Origin: Bacillota bacterium
GTDB lineage: Bacteria > Bacillota > Clostridia > Peptostreptococcales > Anaerovoracaceae
Direction of reading: 5' to 3'
Assembly (NCBI GenBank): GCA_022769485.1
Contig: JALEJU010000032.1
Coordinates: forward strand, 16,440 to 80,439
Length of the DNA: 64,000 nucleotides
Shown here: in pieces, positions 37,919 to 62,649 of the stretch
How the letters are laid out: every line of letters starts with the position of its first letter
How positions within the stretch are numbered: the first letter of the stretch is position 1
The notes under the pieces: model-generated
The model's input: the letters and a program-made list of their open reading frames with translations, nothing else
What the model was told of the DNA's origin: nothing
Databases searched by the model: none
Program-made: the position numbers and the translations under genes

Positions 37919-40384
37919 TTATTTTTTGACTTCCAGGTTCAATTCCTTGATCGCGTCCTCACGCATTTTATATTTCAGAATTTTCCCTGCGGCGTTCATG
38001 GGGAAGCTGTCGGTAAAGGAAATATAGCGGGGAATCTTGTGCTTCGCCATATTTTGACGAACGTAATCCTTGATTTCCTCTTCCGTTGCTGTTTCGCCTT
38101 TTTTCAGAATAATGCAGGCCATGATTTCTTCTCCGTATCCGGGATCCGGTACGCCGATAACCTGAACATCTTCAACCTTTGGATGGGTATAAAGGAATTC
38201 TTCGATTTCCTTGGGATAGATATTTTCGCCGCCGCGGATGATCATATCTTTTAAACGTCCTGTAATTCGGAAATTTCCTTCCGGGGTTCTGCAGGCCAGA
38301 TCTCCTGTATGCAGCCAGCCTTTCTCATCGATGGCGGCTGCAGTTGCGCCGGGCATTTTGTAATATCCTTTCATGATATTATACCCTCGGGCTATAAATT
38401 CTCCGTTTTCGCCGTCCGGCATTTCCAGACCGGTTTCCGGATCCACAATTTTACATTCGATTTCCGGAAGGGGACGCCCTACGGTACTGACCCGTACATC
38501 AATAGGGTCGTCGGTACTGCTCATGGTGCAGCCCGGGGACGCTTCCGTCTGCCCGTAAACGATGGTTATTTCCTTCATATTCATCTTTTCCTGCACATCC
38601 TGCATAACGGAGATGGGGCAGGGGCTTCCGGCCATAATCCCGGTTCGCATATGAGAGAAGTCAACACTGTTGAAATCCTTATGCTGGAGCATGGCGATAA
38701 ACATGGTCGGAACACCGTGGAAGCAGGTAATCCGTTCCTGATTGATACAGGTTAAAGCCGGCTTCGGCGAGAAATACGGCAACGGGGACAGCATAGCGCT
38801 GTGGGTCATAGCCGCGGTCATAGCCAGTACCATGCCGAAGCAGTGGAACATGGGAACCTGAATCATCATGCGATCCGCAGTAGATAAATCCATCCGGTCG
38901 CCAATGCATTTTCCGTTGTTGACTACGTTCCTGTGGGTCAGCATAACCCCTTTGGGGAAACCGGTGGTTCCGGAGGTATACTGCATATTGCATACGTCGT
39001 CCGGATGAACCTGAGCGGCTCTGCGCCATACTTCTTCCACGGGAACTTTCTGCCCAAAAGCCAGCGCCTCTTCCCAGGTGAGACAGCCTTTCTGTTTGGA
39101 AGAAACCGTAATAATGCGGCGAAGGAAGGGCAGGCGGCTGCAGTGCAGCGGCGCGTTGGAGTCGGCGGTTTCCAATTCCGGACAAAGCTCTTTAATGGCG
39201 CCGATATAGTCGGAATCCCTCCAGCCGTCTATCATGATCAGAACACGGGTATCCGATTGGCGAAGCAAGTATTCGGCTTCCCGGATTTTATATGCCGTAT
39301 TCATAGTAACTAATACCGCGCCCAATTTTACAGTAGCCCAGAAAGCGATATACCACTGAGGAACATTGGTAGCCCAAACAGCCACATGATCGCCTGCTTT
39401 TACGCCCAAAGCAATCAAAGAACGGGCAAACTGATCTACATCTTCCCGGAATTCTGCGTAAGTTCTGGTGTAATCCAGCGTGGTGTAACGGAAAGCGTAT
39501 TGATCCGGGAATTCTTCCACAAGACGGTCGAGAACCTGGGGGAACGTCAGAGAGATCAATTTATCTTTGGGCCAGATGAACCAGCCGTCGCCACGCTTAT
39601 TTTCGCAGAGGCGGCCTGCTTTTTTGTCTTTGCCCAGATACGTATTCATGTAATTTACATAATGGGGACAGATGATCTCCGGGTCGTTAAGCCCCATATT
39701 GTCTTTCTCCGGCCAGATCAGGGAAAGAAAGCCGCTGTAGCCGATGGAGTTAAGCGCACTGATCATATCGGCGAGGGGCAGCTCGCCGTCGCCGATGAGG
39801 CAGTCGTGCTTTTCACTTCCATGCCGGAAATCCCGGACATGAACGTGCTTAATATAAGCGCCCAGGTTTTTTACGGTTTCTTCCGCGCTTTCTCCTTTTA
39901 AATAAGGACCGCGGAGATTCCAGAGCGCCCCCAGCCAGTCGCTGGCGAATCGATCCAGAAGAGCGCTTAATTTGGATGTATCCGCATAAAGTCCGCGGGT
40001 TTCCATAAGCAGGATGGTATCTTCTTCCTCTGCAATGGGAATCAATTTTTCCAAAGCTTTAATGATTTCTTCTTCCTGCTGTCCCTCCTGCTTCGGAGCC
40101 GGAAGATGGACGTAAGGAATCTGCAGAGCGCCCGCCAGCATAACCGCAGATGCGGCGTCTTTAAAGTCAACAGCCGAGAGGCAGGGGACAGAGAGTTCCA
40201 TCTGATTCAGTTTTCGAATCAGGTTCTGGCTGTCCGCAATGGCGTAGGGACCTGTTAAGTAACGTTCTTTTGCGGCTTCCTGAAAGAGCAGTTCCACACC
40301 GGAAAAACCCATTTCTTTTGCCAGAGAAAAGTGTTCGGACCAGGAGTAACCGGGCCATCCATGATTTGAGTAACAGAGCTTCAT
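37919..40384 (-). CDS. fusion protein: xylose-isomerase-like TIM barrel (N, ~250 aa) plus AMP-forming acyl-CoA synthetase (C, ~560 aa)
   Basis: The N-terminal GFSGVEL...HVHVRD pattern fits sugar-phosphate isomerase/epimerase-like TIM barrels. The C-terminal part has YTSGTTGFPKGVMLTH, GYGQTE-like QTEASP, TGDL and the final KILK of the ANL superfamily. It is one continuous ORF. Confidence 0.8.
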   Translation of the reverse strand: MKLCYSNHGWPGYSWSEHFSLAKEMGFSGVELLFQEAAKERYLTGPYAIADSQNLIRKLNQMELSVPCLSAVDFKDAASAVMLAGALQIPYVHLPAPKQEGQQEEEIIKALEKLIPIAEEEDTILLMETRGLYADTSKLSALLDRFASDWLGALWNLRGPYLKGESAEETVKNLGAYIKHVHVRDFRHGSEKHDCLIGDGELPLADMISALNSIGYSGFLSLIWPEKDNMGLNDPEIICPHYVNYMNTYLGKDKKAGRLCENKRGDGWFIWPKDKLISLTFPQVLDRLVEEFPDQYAFRYTTLDYTRTYAEFREDVDQFARSLIALGVKAGDHVAVWATNVPQWYIAFWATVKLGAVLVTMNTAYKIREAEYLLRQSDTRVLIMIDGWRDSDYIGAIKELCPELETADSNAPLHCSRLPFLRRIITVSSKQKGCLTWEEALAFGQKVPVEEVWRRAAQVHPDDVCNMQYTSGTTGFPKGVMLTHRNVVNNGKCIGDRMDLSTADRMMIQVPMFHCFGMVLAMTAAMTHSAMLSPLPYFSPKPALTCINQERITCFHGVPTMFIAMLQHKDFNSVDFSHMRTGIMAGSPCPISVMQDVQEKMNMKEITIVYGQTEASPGCTMSSTDDPIDVRVSTVGRPLPEIECKIVDPETGLEMPDGENGEFIARGYNIMKGYYKMPGATAAAIDEKGWLHTGDLACRTPEGNFRITGRLKDMIIRGGENIYPKEIEEFLYTHPKVEDVQVIGVPDPGYGEEIMACIILKKGETATEEEIKDYVRQNMAKHKIPRYISFTDSFPMNAAGKILKYKMREDAIKELNLEVKK

Positions 40385-41820
40385 GATTCTTTTTCCTCAT
40401 ACACAATTTTGTTGACGGCGTTCAAATACGCGTTGATGCTGGCGCCTATAATATCAGTAGAGAGCCCGTGGCCGGAGTACAGTTTTCCATTGTGACGGAG
40501 CTTAACCAGCGCGTCGCCCATGGCTTCCCTGCCTTCGGTGACTGCCTGAATCTGGAAATCGTCCAGTTCGAAATGACGACCCAAAAGCTGTTCGATGGTA
40601 AGGAAGGCCGCGTCGATGGGGCCGTCCCCGGTGGAAACGGTTTGGCGTACTTCATCTTCCCGGTTAATTCTCACCTTTATGCAGGCGGTAGCCGCGATAG
40701 AATTCCCGCTGTTGATCACATAATGAACCAACTGGTAAGTAGGGGAAACCTGTTGGGTGCTCTCTGCGATGATCGCTTCCAGATCCCGATTATCCACTTT
40801 TTTCTTGGATGCCAGACGGTGGAATTGTCGGTAAACCTGCTCCAGATCCTTTTCTTCCAGATCGTATCCAAGCTTTTCCACCCTCCGGCGGATTACCAGC
40901 AGATCCGAATCCACGGTCAACTCTTCTTTTGCCAGGTTATCTTCTGTTTCGGGAGAACCCACCGTATGAGAAAACACGGATTTTCCGGTACGATTCATGC
41001 CCATCAGCCGTTCAATCTGCTTGCAGCTTCTTTGCAGGCCGGTAGCGTTTACTTCAAAACAGATACCCAGAGCGTCTTCCCGAACCCGAAGGGTATGGAT
41101 GAGCTCTTCTAAAGATAATGCGTTTCCGATCCCGCCGCAGGTTGTTTTTAAATGGGTGATTCCTGCGGAAACCGCGGACAGGGCGTTGGCAGTTGCCAGT
41201 CCCAGCTCATCTTTGCATTGGAAAGCCAGAGTAATATCGCTGCATTCCGGAACTTCTTTCCGCAGCTGAGATATCAGGTTCGTAATTTCCTGGGGGAGTA
41301 TTTCCCCGGCAGAGTCGCATAATGTTACGGTTTTTACTCCGCTTTTAATTGCTGCGGCTACTGCCTTATGCAGAAATTCACTTTCGCTTCTGGTAGCGTC
41401 TTCAGCAGAAAATTCCACGTCGGGGCAAAGGGAAACGCAGTAAGCGGACAGCTCTTCAATGCGTTCCAGCATAGCGGCCGGTTTTGTGTGGTGAACGTAT
41501 TCCATCTGAATTGCGGAAGTGGGAACAACCAGGTTGATTCTCGGATGTGCCGCTCCGGACAGCGCTTTCCAGGCTTTGTCGATGGCATCCCGATCCAGTC
41601 CTACCGGAACACAGAGTACGGAATTTTTTAAAAAACCGGCTATGGTGCGCACCGTAATGGTTCCCACCTGTTCGTCTTTAAGGAATCCGGTTTCGATCAC
41701 ATCCACATGAAGTTTTTCTAAAATCTTTGCAATTTCAATCTGTTCTTTAAAGCTCAAGCCGGAAGCAGAATCCAATTCTCTTTCCCGCAGAGTAATATCG
41801 GTAATACGAATTTTTTGCAC
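40381..41820 (-). CDS. 2-isopropylmalate synthase paralog with degenerate metal-binding residues and a retained LeuA-type C-terminal domain
   Basis: HMGL-like barrel (EFSAEDATR, DSAG) plus a LeuA_dimer-like C-terminus. The DTTLRDGEQ motif reads DITLRERE, and the HxHND motif reads QCKDE (41200-41220). It overlaps the downstream gene as ATGA. Confidence 0.75.
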   Translation of the reverse strand: MQKIRITDITLRERELDSASGLSFKEQIEIAKILEKLHVDVIETGFLKDEQVGTITVRTIAGFLKNSVLCVPVGLDRDAIDKAWKALSGAAHPRINLVVPTSAIQMEYVHHTKPAAMLERIEELSAYCVSLCPDVEFSAEDATRSESEFLHKAVAAAIKSGVKTVTLCDSAGEILPQEITNLISQLRKEVPECSDITLAFQCKDELGLATANALSAVSAGITHLKTTCGGIGNALSLEELIHTLRVREDALGICFEVNATGLQRSCKQIERLMGMNRTGKSVFSHTVGSPETEDNLAKEELTVDSDLLVIRRRVEKLGYDLEEKDLEQVYRQFHRLASKKKVDNRDLEAIIAESTQQVSPTYQLVHYVINSGNSIAATACIKVRINREDEVRQTVSTGDGPIDAAFLTIEQLLGRHFELDDFQIQAVTEGREAMGDALVKLRHNGKLYSGHGLSTDIIGASINAYLNAVNKIVYEEKES

Positions 41821-41836
41821 CGGGTAATCCTCCTTT

Positions 41837-42913
41837 TTATACGGTTACGGTCCATCCCATTTCATCTTTTACTGCGCCGGTCTGAATTCCGTAAAGCGTG
41901 TCATAAAGCTTCTGGGAAACAGGGCCGACTTCTCCTTCTCCGATTTCCAGTGACTGGCCTTTGTACACCAATCTGCCGATGGGGGAGATTACCGCAGCGG
42001 TTCCCGTCGCAAATACTTCCTGCAGCCGTCCTTCTTTTGCAGCTGTAAAAAGATCTTCCATAGAGAGACGTTCTTCCTTGACCGTATAACCCCAGTTTCT
42101 CAGGAGCTGCAGAACGGAATTTCTGGTAATGCCGGGTAAAATAGTGCCTGTCAAGGGAGCGGTGATGATCTCGTTATCGATCATAAAAAACGCATTGGAG
42201 GTTCCGATTTCTTCTACATATTTCTTTTCGATGGCATCCAGCCAGAGAACCTGCTCACAGCCGTTGGCATGGGCTTTCTCCTGCGCTTTCAGAGCACCCG
42301 CGTAGTTTCCGCCTACTTTTGCGTAGCCGGTTCCGCCGGGAACGGATCGAACGTATTCGTCTTCCACGAAAATGCTGTTGGCTACCAGACCGCCGTTGCT
42401 GCTTTCATAATAAGAGCCTACGGGGCTGAGAATGATCACAAAGAGATAGTGGTTGGAGGGTCTTACGCCTAAAAACGCCTCATCGCCGATGATAAAGGGG
42501 CGAATATAGAGAGCGGTTCCGGGCTGATCCGGAATCCAGTCCCGTTCCACATCTACCAGGGCCTTGATACAAGCGACATAAAGATCTTCATCCATCTGCG
42601 GCATGCACATGCGGTCGTTTGTGGCGTTGGTACGCTTTGCATTCATATCCGGACGGAACAGAAGAACTTTACCTTCCGCAGTTTTATATGCTTTCAGCCC
42701 TTCGAACATCTCTTGACCGTAATGGAAAACCACTGCGGCAGGATCCATCTGCAGGGGACCGTAAGGAACGATGCGGCCGTCATGCCAGCCTTTTTCTGTA
42801 TCATAATCCATCAGGAACATATGGTCGGTGAAAATTTTACCGAAACCAAGGGACTTCGGATCCGGTTTTTCTTTCGGAGTATCAGTGAGTGTTTTTTTGA
42901 ATTCGTAATTCAT
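41837..42913 (-). CDS. ilvE: branched-chain amino acid aminotransferase
   Basis: 358 aa, fold-type IV PLP enzyme pattern (FEGLKAY, GGTGYAKVGGNYA, GITR), as in long-form IlvE. Confidence 0.9.
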   Translation of the reverse strand: MNYEFKKTLTDTPKEKPDPKSLGFGKIFTDHMFLMDYDTEKGWHDGRIVPYGPLQMDPAAVVFHYGQEMFEGLKAYKTAEGKVLLFRPDMNAKRTNATNDRMCMPQMDEDLYVACIKALVDVERDWIPDQPGTALYIRPFIIGDEAFLGVRPSNHYLFVIILSPVGSYYESSNGGLVANSIFVEDEYVRSVPGGTGYAKVGGNYAGALKAQEKAHANGCEQVLWLDAIEKKYVEEIGTSNAFFMIDNEIITAPLTGTILPGITRNSVLQLLRNWGYTVKEERLSMEDLFTAAKEGRLQEVFATGTAAVISPIGRLVYKGQSLEIGEGEVGPVSQKLYDTLYGIQTGAVKDEMGWTVTV

Positions 42914-42929
42914 TTTTTACCTCCATTAT

Positions 42930-43463
42930 CTATTCACATTTGAATGCTTTGATCGCTCTGCGGTTCAAATCAAGGTGCTTTGCTTTCTTTCCGGAGAAGA
43001 CTTTCTGCAGGACGTATTCGATGGCTTCTTCCGATAAAATTTTGGTAGCGGATAAAATGGCTCCGAACATAACCATGTTGGCCGCCTTCGTATTTCCCAG
43101 TTCGTTTGCCAGTTCGCTGCAGGGAACTTTATAGATGGAAATATCTGACCGGATGGGTTCTGTCTGAACCAGAGACTGGTTGATAAACAGATTTCCGCCG
43201 GGTTTAACCAAGCGTTCAAAGCTTTGCAGAGACGGTTGATTCATAGCGATCACGGTGTCTGCCTCGTAAATCATGGGGCAGTTGATTTTTTCATCGGATA
43301 CGATTACGGTGCAGTTGGCCGTGCCTCCCCGCATCTCGGGACCGTAGGAAGGCATAAAGGTAACTTCTTTGTTATCATACATACCGCCGTATGCCAGCAT
43401 TTGTCCCATAAGCAGGATGCCCTGGCCGCCGGCACCGGCGAAAAAGAATTTATTCGTACTCAT
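42930..43463 (-). CDS. 2-oxoacid:ferredoxin oxidoreductase, gamma subunit
   Basis: FAGAGGQGILLMG and SYGPEMRGG motifs. Confidence 0.85.
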   Translation of the reverse strand: MSTNKFFFAGAGGQGILLMGQMLAYGGMYDNKEVTFMPSYGPEMRGGTANCTVIVSDEKINCPMIYEADTVIAMNQPSLQSFERLVKPGGNLFINQSLVQTEPIRSDISIYKVPCSELANELGNTKAANMVMFGAILSATKILSEEAIEYVLQKVFSGKKAKHLDLNRRAIKAFKCE

Positions 43464-43464
43464 A

Positions 43465-44208
43465 TTAGTCCTCCTCCGGTGTTCTGAAATTGCCTAACGG
43501 ATAATAAGGAATCATTTCATCTCTCATCCACTGTAAAGCGTCTGCGGGTGTTTTGCCCCAGTTGGTCGGACAGGAAGAAAGGAATTCCACAAATGTAAAG
43601 CCCAAACCTTTTTCCTGAATTTCCAGCGCTTTCATAACGGCCTTTTTGGCTTGCCGAACGTGAGCGGGGGTATCCAGAGAAACCCGTTCTACGAATACCG
43701 CACCTTCCAGCGTGGCGATCAGCTCGGATACGCGGATGGGAGCGCCAGCCTGTTCTTTTGTGCGTCCGTTGACGGAAGTGGTAGAGCGCTGTCCCAGCAG
43801 GGTGGTGGGAGCCATCTGGCCGCCGGTCATACCGTAGATACAGTTGTTGATAAAAAATGTAGTAAAGTGTTCGCCTCTTGCTGCGGCGTGGATGATTTCC
43901 GCCATACCGATGGAAGCCAGGTCGCCGTCGCCCTGGTATGTGAAAACGATGCGGTCAGGCTGTGCCCGGCGGATGCCGCTGGCAACAGCGGGAGCTCTGC
44001 CGTGAGCCGCTTCGCACATATCTATATTCATAAATTGATGAGCCAGTACACTGCATCCGATTGGTGCAACGCCGATGGTGTCGCCTAATTTTCCTTTTTC
44101 CTCAAGACATTCCATAATCAGGCGATGGGCAATGCCGTGGGTGCAGCCGGGGCAGTAACTTGTGGAAACGGGAAGCATTCCCTTTGTATAAGTAAATACC
44201 GGTTTCAT
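43465..44208 (-). CDS. 2-oxoacid:ferredoxin oxidoreductase, beta (TPP-binding) subunit
   Basis: CPGCTHG, GDGD and NNCIYGMTGGQ motifs. Confidence 0.9.
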   Translation of the reverse strand: MKPVFTYTKGMLPVSTSYCPGCTHGIAHRLIMECLEEKGKLGDTIGVAPIGCSVLAHQFMNIDMCEAAHGRAPAVASGIRRAQPDRIVFTYQGDGDLASIGMAEIIHAAARGEHFTTFFINNCIYGMTGGQMAPTTLLGQRSTTSVNGRTKEQAGAPIRVSELIATLEGAVFVERVSLDTPAHVRQAKKAVMKALEIQEKGLGFTFVEFLSSCPTNWGKTPADALQWMRDEMIPYYPLGNFRTPEED

Positions 44209-45284
44209 TTTAATCCCTCCAAAATCTTCTTCGCTTTTTCTGCAACTTCCAGGGAAGTGGGAATGATGCCGCCGGTTCTGTGAATCAGTTCAACCGGGAA
44301 TCGTCCGCACACGCCCATTTTTACGTCCTGGAGCATCTGTCCCATAGATAATTCCGCTGAAATGACGACTTTCGTTTTGCTTTCAATCCGGTCAAATGCT
44401 TCGTACGGGAAGGGCCACAGAGAAATGGGACGGATCATGCCTGCTTTGATTCCTTCTTTTGCTAAGAGCTCTATAACCTCGTGAATCAGACGAGCCATGG
44501 TTCCAAAGGCAGTGAATACGATGTCCGCATCTTCTAAGCCGATGCATTCGTAACGAACCAGTTCTTTTTCAGCTTGTGCATACTTTTCATACAGCTTTTC
44601 CACATGAACTTCCAGGTCTTCCGGTTTTAAACGGAGGGATTTTACCACGCTGCGGTTTTCTTTGTAGCCGCTGCCGCTGGCCGCCCAGGGTTTTACTTTG
44701 GGAACATCGCCGGGGAGAAGGGGGGCTTTGGGTTCGGGAAGAACGACAGGCTCCATCATCTGTCCCATAATACCGTCGGCGAGAATCATAACAGGGTTTC
44801 TCCAATAGTCTGCCATAGAGGGTGCTTCGTAGAGAATATCCACGGCTTCCTGGATTGTGGAAGGCGCGAAAACCGGAATCCGGTAGTCGCCGTTTCCGCC
44901 GCCTCTGGTAACCTGAAAATAGTCTGCTTGTCCGGGCTGGATGCCGCCGATTCCCGGACCGCAGCGGGATACGTTCAAAAGTACCGCCGGAACTTCTGCG
45001 GAAGCCAGAAAGCTCATTCCTTCCTGCATGAGGGCAATACCGGGAGAGGAAGAGGAAATAAAACAGCTTCCTCCTGCGGCTCCGCAGCCGTAGGCCATAT
45101 TGATTGCTCCCAGTTCACTTTCCGCTTGCAGGAACGTTCCGCCTCTTTCGGCCAGTTCCCTGGACATATATTCGGGAATTTCACTCTGAGGGGTAATCGG
45201 GTAGCCGAAATAATAACGGCAGCCGCCTCGGATGACTGCTTCTGCGAAAGCTTCGTTTCCTTTCATTAATACCTTTTCTGCCAT
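44205..45284 (-). CDS. 2-oxoacid:ferredoxin oxidoreductase, alpha subunit
   Basis: GNEAFAEAVIRGGCRYYFGYPITPQSEI is the typical N-terminus. It overlaps the beta-subunit gene by 4 nt. Confidence 0.9.
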   Translation of the reverse strand: MAEKVLMKGNEAFAEAVIRGGCRYYFGYPITPQSEIPEYMSRELAERGGTFLQAESELGAINMAYGCGAAGGSCFISSSSPGIALMQEGMSFLASAEVPAVLLNVSRCGPGIGGIQPGQADYFQVTRGGGNGDYRIPVFAPSTIQEAVDILYEAPSMADYWRNPVMILADGIMGQMMEPVVLPEPKAPLLPGDVPKVKPWAASGSGYKENRSVVKSLRLKPEDLEVHVEKLYEKYAQAEKELVRYECIGLEDADIVFTAFGTMARLIHEVIELLAKEGIKAGMIRPISLWPFPYEAFDRIESKTKVVISAELSMGQMLQDVKMGVCGRFPVELIHRTGGIIPTSLEVAEKAKKILEGLK

Positions 45285-45502
45285 TATGCTTCCTCCTCAA
45301 AAATTTCAATCGCGCCATCGGGGCACATTACAGCGCAGCTGGTGCAGCCGACGCATTCTTCCTGCCGCTCCACAGACGCGGGGAAATATCCTTTGCCGTT
45401 AACGTGGGAACCCATGACGATCAGGTCTTTGGGGCAAACTGTTTTGCACAGTTCACAGCCTTTGCATTTGTCCGCATCAATGCGAACCACATATTTTGCC
45501 AT
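45284..45502 (-). CDS. 2-oxoacid:ferredoxin oxidoreductase, delta (2x[4Fe-4S] ferredoxin) subunit
   Basis: Two cysteine clusters, CKGCELCKTVCP and CVGCTSCAVMCP. ATG 45502 is preceded by AAAGGAG. It overlaps the alpha-subunit gene start. Confidence 0.85.
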   Translation of the reverse strand: MAKYVVRIDADKCKGCELCKTVCPKDLIVMGSHVNGKGYFPASVERQEECVGCTSCAVMCPDGAIEIFEEEA

Positions 45503-45559
45503 TAGTGATGCTCCTTTCAAATCGTAACAATAGTTCTATATTAATTGAATTTAATCTGC

Positions 45560-46282
45560 TTATTTGTCCAGCCATTCCGGGCGCATATATAATTGAAGCG
45601 GAAAAATCAATGTGTCCAAAAATTCCAGCTCCTGCGCAGAGACCAGAGGTTCCGGAAACGTATCACAGATAATGGGTTTTCCGGTTTTTTCGGAAAGCGC
45701 TTTGCAGAGTTCATGTCCTTTTTTTATATCCTCCGCTGTGGTTTCCCGAAGCAGGTGTGTATTGTTGATCAGACCTTTTACCTCTGTTTCCAGTTCTGTT
45801 TCGATGGCGTACAGGTGTTTTAAAGCACCGTTTAAATTTCTGGTTTCCGGGCGGTTTCGGTTAATGACGGTCAGAAGGATGGATTCTTCTGTTTGAAAAT
45901 ACTTTCGAAATTGCTTCAGTACCCGAGCGCCGCTGTCGTTTCCGCCGATATCCAGAATCGCGCAGCAGTCGGGATTTTCTAAAGGCGTCCGGATGGATGC
46001 GGACAGAGCGGGAAGCTCTGCTGTGATTTCTCCCCGGTACGCACTTCCGAATACCTGAATCCCGCTGGCCTCCAGAATTTCCGTACGTTCCCGGGAGCGG
46101 AAATAAGGATTTGCAACGTCTAAGTCTACTAAAGAGACTTCCTTAAAAGGACAGTGCATTTCATCGTTTTTTAATGCCAGAGCCAGATTGACCGCAAACT
46201 CTGTTTTTCCGCTACCGTAATGTCCGGTTATGACAATAATTCTCTTTTTCGTGTCAAAGAGATAGGGCATAGGCTGTTTCAT
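45560..46282 (-). CDS. P-loop NTPase (MinD/ParA/CooC-like), first gene of the oxidoreductase operon
   Basis: Walker A ITGHYGSGKTEF, followed by DLD and DIGGND patterns. I recognise no specific family. Confidence 0.6.
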   Translation of the reverse strand: MKQPMPYLFDTKKRIIVITGHYGSGKTEFAVNLALALKNDEMHCPFKEVSLVDLDVANPYFRSRERTEILEASGIQVFGSAYRGEITAELPALSASIRTPLENPDCCAILDIGGNDSGARVLKQFRKYFQTEESILLTVINRNRPETRNLNGALKHLYAIETELETEVKGLINNTHLLRETTAEDIKKGHELCKALSEKTGKPIICDTFPEPLVSAQELEFLDTLIFPLQLYMRPEWLDK

Positions 46283-46325: not shown

Positions 46326-46360
46326 TTATAAAAGAAACCCCGCTCACTAAGAACGGGGTT
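46326..46360 (-). terminator. intrinsic terminator / candidate attenuator between the leader ORF and the operon
   Basis: On the minus strand, AACCCCG pairs with CGGGGTT around an 11-nt loop and is followed by TCTTTTAT. It ends about 45 nt before the first operon ATG, and I see no promoter in between. Confidence 0.55.
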
Positions 46361-46383
46361 GTGCTTACAACTATGATTATAAA

Positions 46384-46536
46384 CTAACAATTGCCTATTC
46401 TCAGTGTACCTGTGTTTTCATCAGATTTAGCTGCCAGCAGAATGCTAAGCAACAGAACCAGACCCAGCAATACAACGATTGCAGGGCTAATCAGCAGATC
46501 CAGGTTGTTGAGAACATGCATATAAGTTTTCATCAT
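46384..46536 (-). CDS. unannotated 50-codon ORF rich in Leu/Ile/Val (MMKTYMHVLNNLDLLISPAIVVLLGLVLLLSILLAAKSDENTGTLRIGNC); leader-peptide candidate
   Basis: The ORF runs from ATG 46536 to TAG 46384-46386, downstream of a minus-strand promoter and upstream of the terminator. By my count 22 of its 50 residues are L, I or V. The RBS is weak. Confidence 0.4.
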   Translation of the reverse strand: MMKTYMHVLNNLDLLISPAIVVLLGLVLLLSILLAAKSDENTGTLRIGNC

Positions 46537-46675: not shown

Positions 46676-46704
46676 CTTGACAGTACAAAAAAACGGTGTT
46701 AGTA
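46676..46704 (+). promoter_or_regulatory. candidate sigma-A promoter for the T-box leader
   Basis: TTGACA (46676-46681), a 17-nt spacer, then TAGTAT (46699-46704). Confidence 0.55.
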
Positions 46705-46711
46705 TGGGTGC

Positions 46712-46990
46712 GTAACTTAATAGAAACAAAGGCTGTGACGAAGACGGTTGAATTTTTTCGTTTCCAGAGAGTCGGCGGGCGCTGTGAGCCGATAATGAGA
46801 AAATTCGGGAACCTATCCCTTCCGAGCCGGGAGCCCGAACTCGCAGGAAAGTAGACGCTCTCCGTAATCGCTGCGTAAAAGCGAAAGGCTTGATAGAGCC
46901 TGTGAGGTGGTATGCTTTGCATGCAATTTGAGTGGTACCGCGGATTGTCAGATTCGTCTCAAAGAAAAAAATTCTTTGGGGCGTTTTTTT
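46712..46990 (+). promoter_or_regulatory. T-box riboswitch leader (Stem I, AGTA box, F-box-like element, T-box core, terminator)
   Basis: GA/K-turn motif (GUGA at 46734-46737 with GA at 46824-46825). AG bulge AGAGAG at 46766-46771 with a distal loop ending GUGA. AGTA at 46850-46853 and CCGTAATCG at 46862-46870. T-box core AATTTGAGTGGTACCGCGG at 46925-46943. A 12-bp terminator spans 46955-46983, followed by seven T. Confidence 0.85.
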
Positions 46991-47014
46991 ATGGCCCCGG
47001 AAAAGAGGTAAAAG

Positions 47015-49282
47015 ATGCAGCAGACAAATGAAATAAGTATGTTACGCGACGTAGCGGCCAGAATCCAGGAACTGAGAGAAATCTCCGGATATACCGCAGA
47101 GGAGATGGCGCAGAAAACCGATGTGAGCGCAGAGCAGTACAAAAGTTATGAAAGCGGAAATGTGGATATTCCGTTTACCTTTATTCATAAGTGCGCGCTT
47201 TGCTTCGGGGTGGAAATTTCCGACTTGATGGAAGGAACCAGCGCTCATTTAACATCTTATACGGTTACGAGAAAGGGAGCAGGTCAGATTACCGCCAGGG
47301 AAGAGGGAATTGAAATTCGAAATCTGGCTACCATGTTCCATAAAAAGATAGCGGAGCCGTATTGGGTAAAATATGAATATTCCGTTGAGCAGCAGTCGAA
47401 GCCCATTCATTTAACGACGCACAAAGGGCAGGAATTTGACTTTGTCCTGAGCGGACAATTAAAAGTGCAGGTAGGCACTCATACGGAAATCCTGTCCGAG
47501 GGCGACAGCATCTACTACGACAGCGCTACGCCTCACGGCATGATCGCTGTAGGCGGAGAAGACTGCGTGTTCTGCGCGGTGGTTCTTTCCGGCGAAGAAA
47601 ACGAAGAAAATCAGATGGGTGAAACAATCGTAGCGGCAAAGCAGACGGAGCATCTGATTTATGAAAACTTTATCCTGCCTCTCGAAGATGAAAACGGCGC
47701 ATTGCAGTCCATCGGGTTCCACAATGAAGATAAATTTAATTTTGCGTTTGACGTTGTAGATGAGCTGGCAAAGAAAAAGCCCAATAAGCTGGCCATGATC
47801 CATCTGGATAAGAACAAGAAGGAACGAAGATTTACTTTTGACGAAATCAGAAAGGCGTCTAACCGTACGGCAAACTATTTTAAGTCCATGGGGATTCAAC
47901 GAGGTGACTGCGTTATGCTGGTCTTAAAACGGCATTATCAGTTCTGGTTTGCCATATTGGCACTTCATAAGATCGGAGCGATTGCGGTGCCTGCGCCCAA
48001 CCAGCTTTTAACAAAGGATTTTGAATACCGTTTCCAATCGGCCGGAATCAAAGCCATCGTCTGCACGGCGGACGGCCAGACGGCGGAGTGCATAGACGAA
48101 GCGCAGCTTACATCTCCCAGCCTTGAATTGAAAGTCATGGTGGGCGGAAATCGACCCGGATGGCGGAACTTTGACGAAGAGTATCTGATGTACAGCGGAA
48201 AATTCGACAGAAGTGAGGACTGTCCCTGCGGCGACGATCCCATGGTTATGTTCTTCAGCTCCGGCACCACGGGTTATCCGAAGATGGCACAGCATAGCTA
48301 TAAATATCCGTTGGGACATTTCGTTACGGCGAAATACTGGCATTGCGTGGATCCCCACGGGCTGCACCTGACCATTTCCGATACAGGCTGGGGAAAATCT
48401 CTTTGGGGCAAGCTGTACGGGCAGTGGATGTGCGAAGCGGCAATTTTCGTGTATGACTTTGATCGCTTTGATGCCAACGATATCCTGCCGCTGTTCAAGC
48501 AGTATAAGATAACAACATTCTGCGCGCCGCCTACTATGTACCGCTTTATGATCAAAGAAGATCTGTCCCGGTTTGACCTGTCCAGTATCCGGCATGCCAC
48601 TACGGCAGGCGAGGCGCTGAATCCGGAAGTATATCATCAATTTAAAAAGGCGACGGGACTTTCTGTTATGGAAGGATTCGGTCAGACGGAAACCACTTTG
48701 CTGATCGGCAATCTGGTCGGCGATACGCCGAAAATCGGTTCCATGGGAAAAGCAAATCCGCTGTTTGATGTAGAGCTTATGACTTCTGACGGAAAACTGG
48801 CCGAAGTGGGAGAAACGGGCGAGATTGTAGTTCGGACGAAGGAAAATCTGCCTGTGGGTATTTTCCTGGGATACTACAGGGATGAGGAAAAGACGAGAGC
48901 ATCCTGGCATGATGGCTATTATCATACGGGAGATACGGCCTGGAAAGACGAGGACGGTTATTTCTGGTATGTAGGCCGGGTAGACGATTTGATCAAATCC
49001 TCCGGATACCGGATCGGGCCCTTCGAAATCGAAAGCGTTATCATGGAGCTTCCTTATGTGTTGGAATGCGGCGTATCGGCTGCCCCGGATGAGATCAGAG
49101 GGCAGGTCGTAAAGGCCAGCATCGTCTTGGTAAAAGGCAAGGAAGGTACGGAAGAATTAAAGAAAGAAATCCAAAACTATGTAAAGAAACGGACGGCCCC
49201 GTATAAGTATCCCAGAATCGTTGTGTTCAGGGACGAGCTGCCTAAGACGATCAGTGGAAAAATCCAGAGAAACAAATTATAA
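47015..49282 (+). CDS. fusion protein: XRE-type HTH plus cupin plus AMP-forming (medium-chain-like) acyl-CoA synthetase
   Basis: N-terminal HTH (ISGYTAEEMAQKTDVSAEQYKSYESG). A cupin (GQEFDFVLSGQLKVQVG...YYDSATPHG). Then ANL motifs (FFSSGTTGYPK, GFGQTE, YHTGD, and SGKIQR at the end). Confidence 0.8.
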   Translation: MQQTNEISMLRDVAARIQELREISGYTAEEMAQKTDVSAEQYKSYESGNVDIPFTFIHKCALCFGVEISDLMEGTSAHLTSYTVTRKGAGQITAREEGIEIRNLATMFHKKIAEPYWVKYEYSVEQQSKPIHLTTHKGQEFDFVLSGQLKVQVGTHTEILSEGDSIYYDSATPHGMIAVGGEDCVFCAVVLSGEENEENQMGETIVAAKQTEHLIYENFILPLEDENGALQSIGFHNEDKFNFAFDVVDELAKKKPNKLAMIHLDKNKKERRFTFDEIRKASNRTANYFKSMGIQRGDCVMLVLKRHYQFWFAILALHKIGAIAVPAPNQLLTKDFEYRFQSAGIKAIVCTADGQTAECIDEAQLTSPSLELKVMVGGNRPGWRNFDEEYLMYSGKFDRSEDCPCGDDPMVMFFSSGTTGYPKMAQHSYKYPLGHFVTAKYWHCVDPHGLHLTISDTGWGKSLWGKLYGQWMCEAAIFVYDFDRFDANDILPLFKQYKITTFCAPPTMYRFMIKEDLSRFDLSSIRHATTAGEALNPEVYHQFKKATGLSVMEGFGQTETTLLIGNLVGDTPKIGSMGKANPLFDVELMTSDGKLAEVGETGEIVVRTKENLPVGIFLGYYRDEEKTRASWHDGYYHTGDTAWKDEDGYFWYVGRVDDLIKSSGYRIGPFEIESVIMELPYVLECGVSAAPDEIRGQVVKASIVLVKGKEGTEELKKEIQNYVKKRTAPYKYPRIVVFRDELPKTISGKIQRNKL

Positions 49283-49312
49283 AGTAAAAAAGTCTGATTT
49301 CAGCAGAACGGG

Positions 49313-49338
49313 AACGGCGGAATCTTTCCGCCGTTTTT
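49313..49338 (+). terminator. intrinsic terminator separating the T-box-controlled gene from metY
   Basis: AACGGCGGAA pairs with TTCCGCCGTT around a 3-nt loop and runs into TTTTT. Confidence 0.8.
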
Positions 49339-49416
49339 CCTTCTGCTGTCATGGCTTTTCTCTTGTATATATGCTATTATAAAAGAACAATGTATGTTGC
49401 AGAAAGGGTAAAATTT

Positions 49417-50694
49417 ATGGAAAGACAGAAAATAGAAACGATTTGCATACAGGAAGGATATAAGCCGGGGAACGGTGAACCGAGAATTCTTCCCATTTAT
49501 CAGAGTACAACCTATAAATATGATTCTGCGGATCATTTAGGCAAGCTGTTTGATTTGGAAGTGCCGGGACATATGTATACGAGAATTTCCAATCCTACGG
49601 TGGAATATGTGGAGCAGAAAATCGCCGCGCTGGAAGGCGGGGTGGGCGCTATGTGCACCTCTTCCGGTCAGGCGGCCAATCTCGTGGCCGTTATGAATAT
49701 TGCCGGCTGCGGTGATAACATCATTTCGCTGTCTTCCATTTACGGAGGAACAATAAACCTGTTTGCGGTAACTATGAAACGTTTCGGAATCGACGTTCGC
49801 TTTGTGAATCCGGACATGACGGATGAAGAGATTGAGCCGTTTTTTGATGAGAATACAAAGGCTGTTTTCGGGGAAACCATTGCAAATCCGGCGCTGAAAG
49901 TATTGGATATCGAGCGTTATGCAAACTTAGCGCACAAACATAATGTTCCTCTTTTGGTGGACAACACATTCGCCACTCCGGTTTTGTGCAGACCTTTTGA
50001 ATTCGGTGCGGATATCGTGATTCATTCTACTACAAAATATATGGACGGGCATGCCAGCGTAGTGGGCGGCGCAGTCGTTGACAGCGGTAATTTTGACTGG
50101 GAAGCAGCGGGCGGTTTTCCGGGGCTGACGGAACCGGACGAATCGTATCACGGTGTGGTTTATACAAGAGATTTCGGAAAAGCCGCTTATATCAGCAAGG
50201 CGCGCTGTCAGCTTATGCGGGATTTGGGCACAACACCTCAGCCCATCGCTGCTTTTATTTTAAATCAGGGACTGGAAACATTGGCACTGCGGATGGAACG
50301 CCATTGTGAAAACGCTATGCAGGTTGCGGAGTATCTGGAGAAGCATGAAAAGATTTCCTGGGTAAATTATCCGAAACTGCCCGGCTCCGACCAATATGAA
50401 CTGGCGGAAAAATATCTGCCCAAAGGCGCCTGCGGCGTAATTTCTTTCGGCGTAAAAGGCGGAAGAGAGGCAGCGGTAAAGTTTATGGACTCTCTGAAGC
50501 TTGCGCAGATTGTGGTGCACGTTGCGGACGCAAGAACCAGCGTGCTGCATCCGGCCAGCACCACACACCGCCAATTAACGGATGAGCAGCTGAAGGATGC
50601 CGGAATCGGCGCAGATCTGGTTCGTCTGTCCGTGGGGATCGAACATATTTCAGATATACTTGCGGATTTAGAACAGGCTCTGAACCAATTGTAG
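49417..50694 (+). CDS. metY: O-acetylhomoserine sulfhydrylase (aminocarboxypropyltransferase)
   Basis: Cys/Met-metabolism PLP enzyme with the PLP lysine in [10 protein letters not shown]. Its length and N-terminus (ETICIQEGY) are typical of MetY. The start is at ATG 49417. Confidence 0.85.
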
Positions 50695-50728: not shown

Positions 50729-51643
50729 GTGCCGATTAAAATTCCCAGCGGACTTCCCGCAGAAGCCACGCTGAAACAAGAGAAAATTTTTGTTATGGAC
50801 GAAGCCAGAGCGCTGTCTCAGGATATTCGTCCTTTGCGCATTGCGGTTCTGAATCTCATGCCTACAAAAATTGCCACGGAAACACAAATTGCCAGGCTGA
50901 TCGGCAATACGCCGCTGCAGTTGGAACTGGAGCTGATTTATACCCAAAGCCATCAGGCGAAAAACATTCCTCTGGAACATTTGCTGGCGTTCTACAAAAC
51001 GTTTGATGAGATAAAGGATCAAAAGTTCGACGGCTTGATTATCACAGGGGCGCCGGTGGAAAAATTGGAATTTGAAGATGTGGATTACTGGCCGGAACTC
51101 TGTGAAATTATGGAATGGTCGAAAACTCATGTGTTCAGTACCTTCCATATCTGCTGGGGCGCACAGGCGGGAATGTATTATCATTTCGGCATTCACAAAT
51201 ATTTGTTGGATGAAAAGCTGTTCGGAGTCTATCCCCATGAAGTGGAAGCGCAGAATGCTGTATTATTCCGCGGCTTTGATGATACGTTTATGGTTCCTCA
51301 GTCGCGGCATACAACCGTGAAACGGGAAGAGATTGAAGCTGTTTCGGATTTGTGGATTTTGGCGTCTTCAAAGGAAGCAGGGGTTTATGCGGTAGCTTCG
51401 CCCCGTTACAAGCAGGTGTTTATTACCGGGCACTCCGAATATGACAGAGAGACACTGGAGAAGGAGTATCTGAGGGATAAAAAAGCGGGACTTCCTATTT
51501 CTGTTCCCGTAAATTATTATCCCAATGATGATGATACGCAAAGACCGATTATGAGCTGGAAAGGGCACGCGCATCTGCTGTATTCCAATTGGCTGAACTA
51601 CGTTTATCAGGAAACACCTTACAATTTGGATGAAATCCAATAG
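50729..51643 (+). CDS. metA: homoserine O-acyltransferase (MetA family)
   Basis: [11 protein letters not shown]...[10 protein letters not shown]...[10 protein letters not shown]...HICWGAQA are hallmark MetA motifs. The start codon is GTG. Confidence 0.9.
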
Positions 51644-60466: not shown

Positions 60467-60554
60467 GGAGAGATGTCAGAGTGGTCGATCGTGCGGCACT
60501 CGAAATGCCGTGCCCTTTACCGGGCCCCGGGTTCGAATCCCGGTCTCTCCGCCA
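60467..60554 (+). tRNA. tRNA-Ser (anticodon CGA), CCA encoded
   Basis: Acceptor stem GGAGAGA/TCTCTCC. Anticodon stem CGGCA/TGCCG with loop CTCGAAA. A long variable arm. T-arm CCGGG-TTCGAAT-CCCGG. Discriminator G followed by CCA. Confidence 0.9.
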
Positions 60555-61079: not shown

Positions 61080-61337
61080 ATGAAGAAAAAAATACAATAC
61101 AACTGGATAGGAAGTATTCTGGTATTTCTGCTCGCCGTCATATGTGTGTTTTTCGTGGTACTGAAAAGCAACCAGGCATTTCTGTCCAAGCCGCCGCTCC
61201 AGATTTTTACCGGAGAATACAGTCGGGATGGAGAGACATGGTATCCGCTGGATGACAATGCCGATTTGGACGCGCTGGATGGAGACCTGTTCCTGCGGGG
61301 ACATCTCAGTTATGACAGCATTGCCGGGAGGACTTAA
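61080..61337 (+). CDS. 85-aa N-terminally anchored protein, possibly the detached N-terminal piece of the adjacent sensor kinase
   Basis: One TM helix, then about 55 extracytoplasmic residues. The stop lies 1 nt before the kinase ATG. A TTGCGA-17-TATAAT promoter lies at 60933-60961. Confidence 0.5.
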   Translation: MKKKIQYNWIGSILVFLLAVICVFFVVLKSNQAFLSKPPLQIFTGEYSRDGETWYPLDDNADLDALDGDLFLRGHLSYDSIAGRT

Positions 61338-61338
61338 T

Positions 61339-62649
61339 ATGCTCAGAATCAATACGATGATGGAACCCAACGTATGCCTGCTGCTCTTTGCGGCGGCGGT
61401 CACACTGTTCCTGCTGTCCGGTGCGTTGATGGACCGCACCCGGGAGAGGGCTTTTATGAAATTTTTTATTGCCCTGCTCATTGCAGCGATTTTTATGCTG
61501 CTGGGGGAGGCCGGACTGTGGTTTTTCAACGGAACGCCACAATATATCCCCATCTTGAAGCTATGCGCCTTTCTGTCCTTTGGCTGCGGTATAGCTGTGA
61601 ATGCGTTATTTGGCTACTGCTTGGTAGGGTATGTGCGGGAACGGGAAAAAGTTTCGTGGAAGTACGCCCACATCATTGCGGGAATCTGCGGCTCTTTTGG
61701 CCTGTTGGTAGTGATCTCCCTTTTCAACGGAATGCTGTTCGGTTTTGATGCCAACGGTATGTATACCGATGGCCCGTGGTACATCATTGTAGAGGTGGTA
61801 GACTTTGGTACGCTGATTTTGGAACTGCTGATGGTGGCATCCTATCGCGCAATTCTTTCCTTGAAGGGAATGCTGTCCCTGCTCACCTTTGGTATTTTGC
61901 CATTGCTGTCCATGTTAGTCCTGCCTTACTGGAATCCAACACCAATGTATATGGCTACCACGCTGTCACTGATCCTGATCCATAATCTGTTCCATGGAGA
62001 GCTGACTCGACAGTTGGCCGAGAAAGAGATACAGCTGGCCGACAGCCGCATCGCTATCACCCTCAGCCAGCTGCAGCCCCATTTTATCTATAATGTGCTC
62101 AATTCTATCTACCATCTTTGCGCACGGGATCCCAAGCTGGCCCAGGAGGCGGTTGACAAGTTCTCGGACTACCTGCGCAACAACATGAAATCCATCGAGC
62201 AGAAGGAGCCGATCCCCTTTGAAGAGGAGTATCAGCATATCCAGACCTACCTCTCCCTGGAAAAGATCCGCTTCAGAACGCTGGAGATCATCTACGATAT
62301 TGACATTGTCAACTTTATGCTGCCGCCTCTGACGGTGCAGCCGCTGGTGGAAAACGCCGTGAAGCATGGGGTGACCAAAAAGCGGGGCGGCGGAACCGTC
62401 ACCATCTCCACCCGGGAGACGGAGAATGCGTACCTTGTCATGGTCATTGATACCGGGATCGGCTTTGACCCCGAGCGGTATTCGGAGGACGGCAAGGTGC
62501 ATATCGGCATCCGCAATGTGCGGGAGCGGCTGCAAAACATGGTAAGCGGGACCCTTTCCATCACCAGCTCCCCCGGTAATGGAACCACGGCCGTGATCAC
62601 GATCCCAAAAAAGGAGGCGGACGGACATGAAAATCATCGCATTGGATGA
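61339..62649 (+). CDS. LytS/YehU-type sensor histidine kinase (multi-TM N-terminus, His_kinase and HATPase_c domains)
   Basis: Six to seven TM helices, then LSQLQPHFIYNVLNSI (the H-box of the LytS-type family), VENAVKHG and DTGIGF. GGGAGGA lies before ATG 61339. Confidence 0.85.
   Translation: MLRINTMMEPNVCLLLFAAAVTLFLLSGALMDRTRERAFMKFFIALLIAAIFMLLGEAGLWFFNGTPQYIPILKLCAFLSFGCGIAVNALFGYCLVGYVREREKVSWKYAHIIAGICGSFGLLVVISLFNGMLFGFDANGMYTDGPWYIIVEVVDFGTLILELLMVASYRAILSLKGMLSLLTFGILPLLSMLVLPYWNPTPMYMATTLSLILIHNLFHGELTRQLAEKEIQLADSRIAITLSQLQPHFIYNVLNSIYHLCARDPKLAQEAVDKFSDYLRNNMKSIEQKEPIPFEEEYQHIQTYLSLEKIRFRTLEIIYDIDIVNFMLPPLTVQPLVENAVKHGVTKKRGGGTVTISTRETENAYLVMVIDTGIGFDPERYSEDGKVHIGIRNVRERLQNMVSGTLSITSSPGNGTTAVITIPKKEADGHENHRIG

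Follow-up and report, generated by a model that had tools for sequence, protein, structure and literature searches.

Why should a T-box, a leader RNA that senses transfer RNA (tRNA), stand in front of an acyl-coenzyme A (CoA) synthetase gene, and which tRNA does it read? The question is raised by a locus in a 64,000-nucleotide (nt) stretch of DNA from a Bacillota bacterium of the family Anaerovoracaceae (GenBank assembly GCA_022769485.1, contig JALEJU010000032.1, positions 16,440 to 80,439; hereafter the window, in whose numbering coordinates are given). Here a T-box leader precedes a gene that encodes a helix-turn-helix (HTH) domain, a cupin and an acyl-CoA synthetase (ACS) in a single polypeptide. 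A preliminary description had recognised the T-box, regarded its specifier loop as collapsed and its specificity as unassignable, and pointed tentatively to an AUC (Ile) codon and to activation of 2-methylbutyrate beside a divergent operon. Comparative evidence from orthologous loci favours this tentative suggestion. We consider it quite probable that the leader is an Ile-specific transcriptional T-box and that the gene encodes a 2-methylbutyrate-activating ligase for isoleucine synthesis.

The T-box itself was recovered with an Infernal-type search. In a permissive covariance-model scan, the Rfam T-box model RF00230 matched 46726-46964 on the plus strand over its full length (model positions 1-219) with 87.3 bits (E 1.1e-19 in the local scan, 1.4e-17 for the whole window and both strands), and the T-box hallmarks were found where they had been described. 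A default Rfam scan of the window returned a tRNA as its single report and missed the T-box because its score lies below the curated gathering score of 93 bits. Three features mainly account for the shortfall: AGUA is gapped, the distal-loop GGUG is replaced by GCUG, and a hairpin is inserted (46886-46901). Several orthologous leaders of the same class exceed the gathering score (97.5-104.9 bits). The Rfam gathering threshold misses members of this class of T-boxes with a compact specifier loop. The covariance-model scan detected no further structured leader on either strand of the window at E <= 0.001. The leader is composed of the following elements.

46677-46705, plus strand: leader promoter of the sigma-A type (TTGACA, 17 nt, TAGTAT, with TG ahead of the -10), from a promoter scan
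46726-46990, plus strand: whole T-box leader, beginning with the covariance-model match and running through the terminator U-tract (RF00230 match and terminator)
46731-46829, plus strand: Stem I with base helix GGC/GCC, K-turn, lower helix, compact specifier loop, upper helix and AG bulge (RNAalifold, 112 Stem I sequences)
46771-46793, plus strand: distal helix and loop of Stem I
46815-46817, plus strand: specifier codon AUC (Ile), preceded by U46814 and followed by C46818, opposite the 5' loop side A46744-C46745
46829-46862, plus strand: Stem II with its S-turn (GAA 46837-46839, AGUA 46850-46853), from the covariance-model alignment and the sequence
46863-46884, plus strand: Stem IIA/B region (CGUAAUCGCUGCGUAA...GCG) with a putative pseudoknot pairing (covariance-model alignment)
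46886-46901, plus strand: extra hairpin AGGCU-UGAUAG-AGCCU between Stem IIA/B and Stem III, an insertion relative to the Rfam model
46910-46924, plus strand: Stem III (covariance-model alignment)
46927-46963, plus strand: T-box sequence and anti-terminator (UUUGAG/CUCAAA, GCGGAUU/GAUUCGU), from a fold of 46920-46962
46955-46990, plus strand: intrinsic terminator, a 12-bp stem (46955-46983) followed by U7, from terminator scan and folding

The specifier loop has AC on its 5' side (46744-46745) and UAUCC on its 3' side (46814-46818), giving 2 x 5 nt. It is held between a lower helix of GAAG (46740-46743) with CUUC (46819-46822) and an upper helix of GGUU (46746-46749) with AACC (46810-46813). 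The loop is thus as it had been drawn, compact and without an AGUA S-turn; the AGUA box that had been listed among the hallmarks is present at 46850-46853 and belongs to the S-turn of Stem II. The Rfam model, too, sets AUC-C immediately ahead of the lower helix. Since a single sequence could not settle the specifier, relatives were collected. The 755-residue protein has more than 8000 related database entries at E <= 1e-20, the top matches having identical architecture. A scan of one genome per species yielded at least 596 encoding loci, and 80 loci were analysed.

AUC was invariant in 66 of 66 orthologous leaders parsed automatically with a regular expression, and in 3 more read by eye. These leaders share the pattern 5'-GAAG/AC/GGNN...NNCC/Y-AUC-N/CUUC-YGA-GC, in which the 5' loop side is AC in 58 of the 66. 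The base before the codon is C in 41 leaders, U in 24 and G in 1; the codon is followed by A in 40 leaders, by C in 24 and by G in 2, so that 42 of 66 have a purine there. In about 45 paralogous leaders, GUA or occasionally GUC (Val) stands in the same alignment columns (94-96), and a purine follows in all 45. A specificity that had seemed unassignable could therefore be read from an invariant codon column, and the pyrimidine after the codon is shared with 24 of the 66 Ile leaders. The leader is, on this comparative evidence, most probably a T-box specific for tRNA-Ile, with AUC 46815-46817 as its specifier.

Could another triplet of the loop be the specifier, so that a tRNA other than tRNA-Ile is sensed? 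In the window, the 3' side CUAUCC also permits UAU (Tyr), UCC (Ser) and CUA (Leu), and a pyrimidine follows AUC. Moreover, UC(A/C/G) stays a Ser codon throughout the orthologs, and UGGU in the anti-terminator is able to wobble-pair with the G73 discriminator of tRNA-Ser. Against this, the -1 frame alternates between His, Tyr and Asp codons among orthologs, following the variable base before AUC. In the +1 frame the codon would abut the helix directly, and the Val leaders would read UAG, UAA or UCA. Both frames are excluded because the former changes its amino acid and the latter gives stop codons in Val leaders. In addition, the in-frame triplet matches the protein clade without exception (67 to 0 and 0 to 41, see below), and the gene surroundings belong to branched-chain amino-acid metabolism. 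We find a specifier other than AUC hardly credible.

Is the compact loop itself real? The AUC, GUA and GUC leaders were combined in a joint Stem I alignment of 112 sequences and folded with RNAalifold, which returned a base helix (alignment columns 1-3/105-107), a lower helix (10-13/98-101) and an upper helix (16-19/89-92) enclosing a loop with a 2-nt 5' side and a 5-nt 3' side (Y-NNN-R), matching the fold drawn for the window. Compensatory changes occur at 14 of the 17 predicted Stem I pairs. Among all Stem I cells, 93.3% are paired versus 78.6% in shuffles, with 0 of 500 shuffles attaining the observed value, and double-change cells number 298 versus 85. Sliding the 3' partners by 1-3 columns lowers pairing to 29-54%. 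Because the flanking helices covary and register slides lose pairing, the compact loop is real and conserved. Single-sequence minimum-free-energy folding of Stem I fails to give the specifier loop; comparative analysis alone does. An alternative register offered by the covariance model, with GAA of GGGAAC at the S-turn, a UUGAAU/AUUCGG helix and a larger loop, was rejected: this GAA is unconserved in orthologs, and it is the GGNN/NNCC helix that covaries.

The same alignment preserves the remaining parts of Stem I. The K-turn, UGUGAC (46734-46739) facing CGA (46823-46825), is kept as YGAC...YGA with covarying flanking helices. The elements of the tRNA-elbow platform, the AG bulge AGAGA (46766-46770) and the distal loop GGGCGCUGUGA (46777-46787), are conserved, and the distal helix covaries. 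The extra hairpin before Stem III is kept across the class, its stem sequences differing among orthologs. The S-turn elements of the specifier loop (AGUA and GAA) are absent from the leader alignments of the whole compact-loop class. A compact loop without an S-turn, which had been taken for a local oddity, is conserved as the common design of over 110 related leaders, among them Ile leaders, Val leaders and some Leu leaders.

Downstream of Stem III, the anti-terminator carries a 7-nt bulge, UGGUACC (46933-46939), inside AAUUUGAGUGGUACCGCGG at 46925-46943. Its first four bases, UGGU (46933-46936), would pair with the 3' end ACCA of a tRNA with discriminator A73. tRNA-Ile, tRNA-Val and tRNA-Leu have A73, and the UGGU bulge is consistent with Ile, Val and Leu leaders for this reason. 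The 12-bp terminator of the preliminary description was found as described, and since terminator and anti-terminator both use CGUCUCAAAG, the two structures are mutually exclusive. A second match to the T-box core (TGGAACCACG, window position 62580) was discarded as a chance occurrence; it falls within an open reading frame (ORF, 61228-62649) and is unsupported by the covariance model.

The T-box is retained in 74 of the 80 loci. In 73 of them the conserved core TGGTACCGCG is present, with TGGTACC(G/A)CG within 450 nt upstream of the gene, and the remaining one (L041, 5670-6000) has a variant core, TGGTAACGCG / UGGUAACGCG, in which one bulge base is altered. Among the other six loci, two are truncated by contig ends and four have no leader: in L022 and L070 the Ile-clade gene is fused straight behind a TIM-barrel/AMP-binding fusion gene (TIM-ACS), and in L019 and L064 the leader is lacking entirely. 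All 68 Ile leaders with recoverable upstream sequence have the arrangement cTTGACAA-17-TGnTAtAAT 25-55 nt upstream of Stem I.

When every T-box core in the loci was located, most loci proved to have a second leader immediately 3' of the first gene. This leader (L001:8330-8560 and about 45 other loci) is a Val T-box with GUA or GUC followed by a purine. Its loop is also compact, with AG instead of AC on the 5' side, and every such leader has its own TTGAC -35 element. It is located between two HTH-cupin-ACS paralogs, upstream of the second (ACS2), an ilvE gene in some loci, a CbiA-like gene and vorDABG. When 127 paralogs were clustered by average linkage, 67 AUC-gated proteins fell into one cluster and 41 GUA/GUC-gated proteins into the other with zero exceptions; the protein of the window is in the Ile cluster.

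Leu (CUC) T-boxes were found upstream of a LeuA-like synthase gene and a fusion of a TIM barrel (AP_endonuc_2) with an AMP-binding domain (L071:150-394, L013:45-282, L057:1430-1690). Their loops vary from a canonical AGUA...GAA-CUC-A in L057 to a compact U-CUC-C in L071, L013 being intermediate. Because Leu leaders show both loop forms, the compact form is a lineage-typical variant alongside canonical T-boxes. Across the 80 loci, the cluster is organised as Leu T-box, leuA-like, TIM-ACS; Ile T-box, ACS1; Val T-box, ACS2; aminotransferase (not in all loci); CbiA-like; vorDABG. CbiA-like and vorDABG adjoin the fusion gene in 52 of 80 loci. In most relatives they follow 3' on the same strand, usually behind the second (Val) T-box and its paralog, and in 7 single-paralog loci the Ile T-box is followed directly by ACS, CbiA-like and vorDABG. 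In the window the oxidoreductase operon is inverted, as it is in L007. The earlier claim that the T-box controls a single gene is thus true for the window and does not extend to most relatives.

Two methionine genes lie downstream in the window, and the question arises whether they are the real targets.

49301-49348, plus strand: stable hairpin 3' of the regulated gene, a probable terminator separating it from metY (-30.8 kcal/mol, z = -5.9)
49417-50694, plus strand: metY
50729-51643, plus strand: metA

Both genes are on the same strand as the regulated gene, and metY begins just 134 nt 3' of it. The hairpin between them had been described as a strong terminator at 49313-49338. It is very stable, as the values above show, but is followed by only a short, broken run of U and is absent from the output of the consensus terminator scan, so that a strong terminator is plausible at most. 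Transcripts reading through it would turn the locus into a Met-type T-box operon. The preliminary description had placed the only AUG of Stem I away from the specifier position, and indeed no AUG occurs there; this AUG (46795-46797) is part of the distal stem. Furthermore, metY and metA are adjacent in 0 of the 80 orthologous loci, whereas the T-box is kept in 74, and a plausible extended -10 promoter (TGCTATTAT, about 49372-49380), read by eye, may serve metY. A Met-type operon is therefore very improbable, in agreement with the earlier view. The covariance-model scan found no S-box or T-box ahead of metY or metA in the window. The longest metY ORF begins at 49351; its alignment to the family models sets in only at about residue 22-29, and the ATG at 49417 has a good ribosome-binding site before it, so that metY probably starts there. 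Further downstream, the window contains an 85-nt tRNA with a long variable arm (60467-60551), whose anticodon loop CUCGAAA gives the anticodon CGA (Ser) by eye.

What does the T-box-controlled gene encode?

47015-49282, plus strand: regulated gene, 755 amino acids (Pfam HTH_3/HTH_19, Cupin_2, AMP-binding, AMP-binding_C)
about 47042-47239, plus strand: XRE-like alpha domain
about 47351-47590, plus strand: cupin with H136, E140 and H174
47729-49279, plus strand: acyl-CoA synthetase domain

The best solved relative of the synthetase domain is PDB entry 3ETC (E 5e-190; next match 1e-109), and the alignment runs end to end over residues 239-753 with 637 bits. 3ETC is MacsMa of Methanosarcina acetivorans, which prefers 2-methylbutyrate as substrate and for which the pocket residue Trp259 is critical (PMC10455477). 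This acyl-pocket Trp, which replaces the pocket Trp of Acs, is conserved: W442 in AKYW aligns with the Trp of TAKYW in 3ETC. MacsMa adenylates propionate, but efficient CoA-ester formation was seen with 2-methylbutyrate only (PMC10455477). The best NCBIfam model is MbcS (NF047394). MbcS of Staphylococcus aureus is selective for 2-methylbutyrate and isobutyrate and acts poorly on isovalerate, butyrate, acetate and propionate (PMC10026030). Most likely, the synthetase domain activates 2-methylbutyrate to 2-methylbutyryl-CoA, as judged from these relatives. Within this domain, the sole residue that discriminates the clades is G460 in the SDTGWGK motif, beside W459: it is Gly in the Ile clade and in 3ETC and Ala in the Val clade. 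A switch in pocket size would be in keeping with this, since the enzyme that handles the larger acid has the smaller residue.

A use for 2-methylbutyryl-CoA is suggested by the divergent operon on the other side of the leader, a functionally linked partner (core 42930-46282, minus strand) that is not under the T-box in the window.

45560-46282, minus strand: CbiA/ParA-like P-loop protein (Pfam, NCBIfam)
45284-45520, minus strand: vorD (Pfam, NCBIfam)
44205-45284, minus strand: vorA-like alpha subunit (Pfam, NCBIfam)
43465-44208, minus strand: oxidoreductase beta subunit (Pfam, NCBIfam)
42930-43463, minus strand: oxidoreductase gamma subunit (Pfam, NCBIfam)
37919-42913, minus strand: distal genes of the same operon (Pfam), namely the following three
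41837-42913, minus strand: class IV (branched-chain) aminotransferase (Pfam)
40381-41820, minus strand: LeuA-like synthase (Pfam)
37919-40384, minus strand: TIM-barrel/AMP-binding fusion (Pfam)

The delta, alpha, beta and gamma genes are contiguous, and the alpha subunit passes the cutoff of the VorB subfamily NF005507 (465 versus 399 bits). Because the oxidoreductase genes of relatives are placed behind Ile or Val T-boxes, a carboxylating (biosynthetic) use of the enzyme is implied.

One can also picture an Ile-specific T-box whose enzyme, like S. aureus MbcS, supplies 2-methylbutyryl-CoA as primer for anteiso branched-chain fatty acids. Such a supply would offset the loss of Ile-derived primer under isoleucine scarcity. 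The documented role of MbcS, the best family match, is the provision of membrane lipid primer (PMC10026030, PMC11167679), and the gene in the window is monocistronic and physically apart from the oxidoreductase operon. The wider cluster speaks for amino-acid supply: the 7 relatives with a single ACS have their Ile T-box directly before ACS, CbiA-like and vorDABG; an aminotransferase belongs to the cluster; and the parallel Val-gated paralog and the Leu-gated leuA-like and TIM-ACS genes follow the same logic. A starvation-induced oxidoreductase would, moreover, be sensible only in the carboxylating direction. We regard the primer role as quite improbable.

A different acid could likewise lead to isoleucine. 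Propionate-to-isoleucine routes are known in anaerobes, and the enzyme might activate propionate, with the oxidoreductase carboxylating propionyl-CoA to 2-oxobutyrate for the ilv pathway. The adenylation of propionate by MacsMa would agree with this, whereas its failure to complete the CoA-ester reaction efficiently with any acid but 2-methylbutyrate and the poor activity of MbcS with propionate would not (PMC10455477, PMC10026030). A comparable short-acid route is lacking for the parallel Val-gated paralog, and an alpha subunit above the VorB cutoff points to branched 2-oxoacids. We see little prospect for the propionate route and retain 2-methylbutyrate as the predicted substrate.

The CbiA/ParA/MinD-like P-loop protein (240 residues) is always found immediately 5' of vorDABG, in the window and in the 52 loci, and has a weak match to MrpORP (Fe-S carrier). 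It may serve this oxidoreductase specifically, as a maturation or accessory ATPase. The operon opens with a hydrophobic 50-residue ORF rich in Leu, Ile and Val (MMKTYMHVLNNLDLLISPAIVVLLGLVLLLSILLAAKSDENTGTLRIGNC; region 46336-46536, minus strand), 3' of which a terminator-like hairpin (46360-46336) with a U-tract lies about 50 nt before the CbiA-like gene. This ORF could be a small membrane protein, or a leader or attenuator replacing lost T-box control; no homolog of it was found in the 80 loci. At its other end, the operon is closed by the LeuA-like and TIM-ACS genes (37919-41820, minus strand), which lack a T-box in the window. The TIM-ACS fusion may be the isovalerate-activating counterpart.

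There remains the N-terminal alpha-domain/cupin module. It had been described as an XRE HTH with a cupin fused to the synthetase, and the HTH_3/Cupin_2/AMP-binding fusion stands. Is the module, then, a true XRE DNA-binding regulator, making the protein a bifunctional enzyme and repressor (compare BirA) that also controls the divergent oxidoreductase promoter? HTH_3 (PF01381) is matched at residues 17-71 with 27.1 bits, above the Pfam cutoff of 23. A profile of the module searched against the PDB matches the HTH domains of PbsX, SinR and the 434 repressor, as well as the XRE-cupin protein 1Y9Q (2.7e-7) and HppE (2.6e-4); a PDB search by sequence alone, made with the N-terminal 233 residues, returned a single weak HTH match. 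The module is also conserved within clades (59-70% identity), and 9 of 68 promoters carry TGTCAA upstream of the -35 element, where 1.5 would be expected.

Other properties of the module speak against DNA binding. The HTH-like domain is strongly acidic: over 108 proteins its net charge averages -5.8 (from -9 to -2), and that of its helix-turn-helix segment -3.7. In Foldseek searches, the two-domain fold of the module matched HppE, HEPD and MPnS equally as well as 1Y9Q (E ~7e-10), and the alpha domain of HppE, HEPD and MPnS is not known to bind DNA. TGTCAA is present in only 13% of the promoters at spacings of 6 to 57 nt, which makes it unconvincing as an operator, and the operator search revealed no consistent inverted repeat or operator in the 68 promoters. 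The cluster is, furthermore, already T-box-gated in most genomes. With an acidic domain, a His-Glu-His triad and no convincing operator, a classical XRE repressor is improbable, and we consider the bifunctional enzyme and repressor unlikely. The structural matches were used at the level of domains alone, as linker and interdomain geometry are unreliable in the AlphaFold model (mean predicted local distance difference test score 68, HTH 82-94, cupin 77-85; predicted template modelling score 0.42).

The cupin offers another clue. H136, E140 and H174 occur without exception in all 127 sequences and align on the His-Glu-His positions of HppE in a profile alignment, which predicts a metal-type cupin with an HppE-like 2-His-1-carboxylate site. 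Between the Ile and Val clades the module shares 45-48% identity versus 71% for the synthetase domain, and 13 of the 14 positions that are fixed differently between the clades fall in the first 230 residues. We propose that the N-terminal module is a ligand- or metabolite-sensing (allosteric) module specific to the Ile or Val branch, and favour this over DNA binding or catalysis. Whether it represents a new amino-acid- or branched-acid-specific sensor or catalytic domain within a CoA ligase we raise as a tentative idea that is rather doubtful at present. If true, branched-chain fatty-acid assimilation would be under two-level control in hundreds of gut and rumen Clostridia, with two readers of one amino acid: a T-box for tRNA charging and a metal-cupin for the free metabolite. 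A more radical and less likely variant is that the HppE-like cupin performs an unrecognised chemical step of the pathway.

Taken together, we envisage the following mechanism. The leader would be transcribed from its own promoter, and uncharged tRNA-Ile (anticodon GAU) would pair with AUC 46815-46817 in the compact 2 x 5-nt loop while its elbow stacks on the platform of AG bulge and distal loop. Pairing of the free ACCA end with UGGU 46933-46936 would then stabilise the anti-terminator, prevent the 12-bp terminator and let the gene be transcribed. Charged tRNA-Ile would be unable to stabilise the anti-terminator, and transcription would halt at 46990. The ligase, as the Ile-gated member of the Ile/Val paralog pair, would convert 2-methylbutyrate to 2-methylbutyryl-CoA; the neighbouring four-subunit 2-oxoacid:ferredoxin oxidoreductase would carboxylate the CoA ester reductively to 2-oxo-3-methylvalerate, and the class IV aminotransferase would turn this into isoleucine.

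It has been recognised since the 1960s that isobutyrate, 2-methylbutyrate and isovalerate are required or used by many rumen and gut anaerobes for making Val, Ile and Leu, and feed 'isoacid' supplements take advantage of this use of branched acids. The gene set of the cluster would cover each step: ligase, reductive carboxylation and transamination. In the rumen, 2-methylbutyrate yields Ile, isobutyrate Val and isovalerate Leu via carboxylation and amination (PMC7356843). A literature search returned no enzyme or tracer data for proteins of this cluster.

Several observations weigh against an Ile-gated, 2-methylbutyrate-activating system in the window. The leader scores below the RF00230 gathering score (87.3 versus 93 bits). 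The base after its codon is C instead of the usual purine, as in 36% of Ile leaders, and the specifier loop lacks an S-turn to present the codon. On the protein side, the equivalog cutoff of MbcS is far from reached (434 versus 850 bits), so that the substrate is taken from relatives alone, and with G460A as the only clade-discriminating difference in the synthetase domain, the acyl preferences of the paralogs may differ little. Finally, the oxidoreductase operon of the window is divergent and outside T-box control, and its coupling to the ligase is by neighbourhood only.

If our interpretation holds, the three-T-box cluster marks its genes as those by which many gut and rumen Clostridia turn branched-chain fatty acids into branched-chain amino acids. 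The specifier codons would act as built-in labels that direct one ligase paralog to isoleucine and one to valine and link the ligases to the oxidoreductase, the P-loop accessory gene and the aminotransferase in at least 596 species-level genomes. Pathway and regulation would become testable and could be annotated in metagenomes, giving gene names to an old physiological observation. For RNA biology, more than 110 natural T-boxes would offer their codon in a minimal loop that lacks the S-turn usually assigned to the decoding platform, and the matched Ile, Val and Leu versions of the leader invite specificity-swap experiments.

How does this system compare with known ones? Its proteins have separate, better known counterparts. 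MacsMa and MbcS resemble the synthetase domain in their selectivity for 2-methylbutyrate and in the conserved pocket Trp, whereas neither has the N-terminal alpha-domain/cupin module and, unlike the gene of the window, neither is reported to be under T-box control. The module shares its two-domain fold with the putative regulator 1Y9Q and with the Fe(II) enzymes HppE, HEPD and MPnS, but is here fused to an adenylate-forming enzyme and strongly acidic; the O2-dependent chemistry of HppE is unlikely in the strict anaerobes that carry it. 2-Ketoisovalerate:ferredoxin oxidoreductase (VOR) has the same four subunits (delta, alpha, beta and gamma), with the alpha subunit here above the VorB cutoff, while in this cluster the enzyme is always accompanied by the CbiA/ParA-like P-loop gene and the copies of relatives lie behind Ile or Val T-boxes.

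With transcriptional T-boxes (RF00230), such as the Ile leaders of ileS and ilv genes in Firmicutes, the leader shares the K-turn, the platform of AG bulge and distal loop, the Stem II S-turn, Stem IIA/B, Stem III, the UGGN bulge in an anti-terminator that competes with a terminator, and the AUC specifier. It differs by the 2 x 5-nt specifier loop without AGUA or GAA and by the extra hairpin before Stem III. AGUA and GAA are typical of T-box specifier loops, and streptococcal glyQS leaders deviate in lacking the GAA element (PMC11404447). They thus resemble the present class in that a specifier-loop S-turn is not strictly required in the family (PMC11404447), but retain an AGUC/AGGA 5' element and a 10-nt 3' side, whereas the loops described here are minimal on both sides, a design that is fixed across over 110 leaders. 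The T-box is directed not at a tRNA synthetase, a classical ilv/leu gene or a transporter but at an acyl-CoA ligase fusion, together with a 2-oxoacid oxidoreductase. The T-box regulon surveys searched mention no acyl-CoA ligase fusion or oxidoreductase targets, and the literature search found no T-box tied to an acyl-CoA synthetase or oxidoreductase and no HTH-cupin-synthetase fusion, an earlier mention in Vitreschak et al. 2008 being possible. The mechanism, then, is that of an ordinary T-box, and the novelty is a loop variant fixed in more than 110 leaders, a class of targets and a cluster with three T-boxes.

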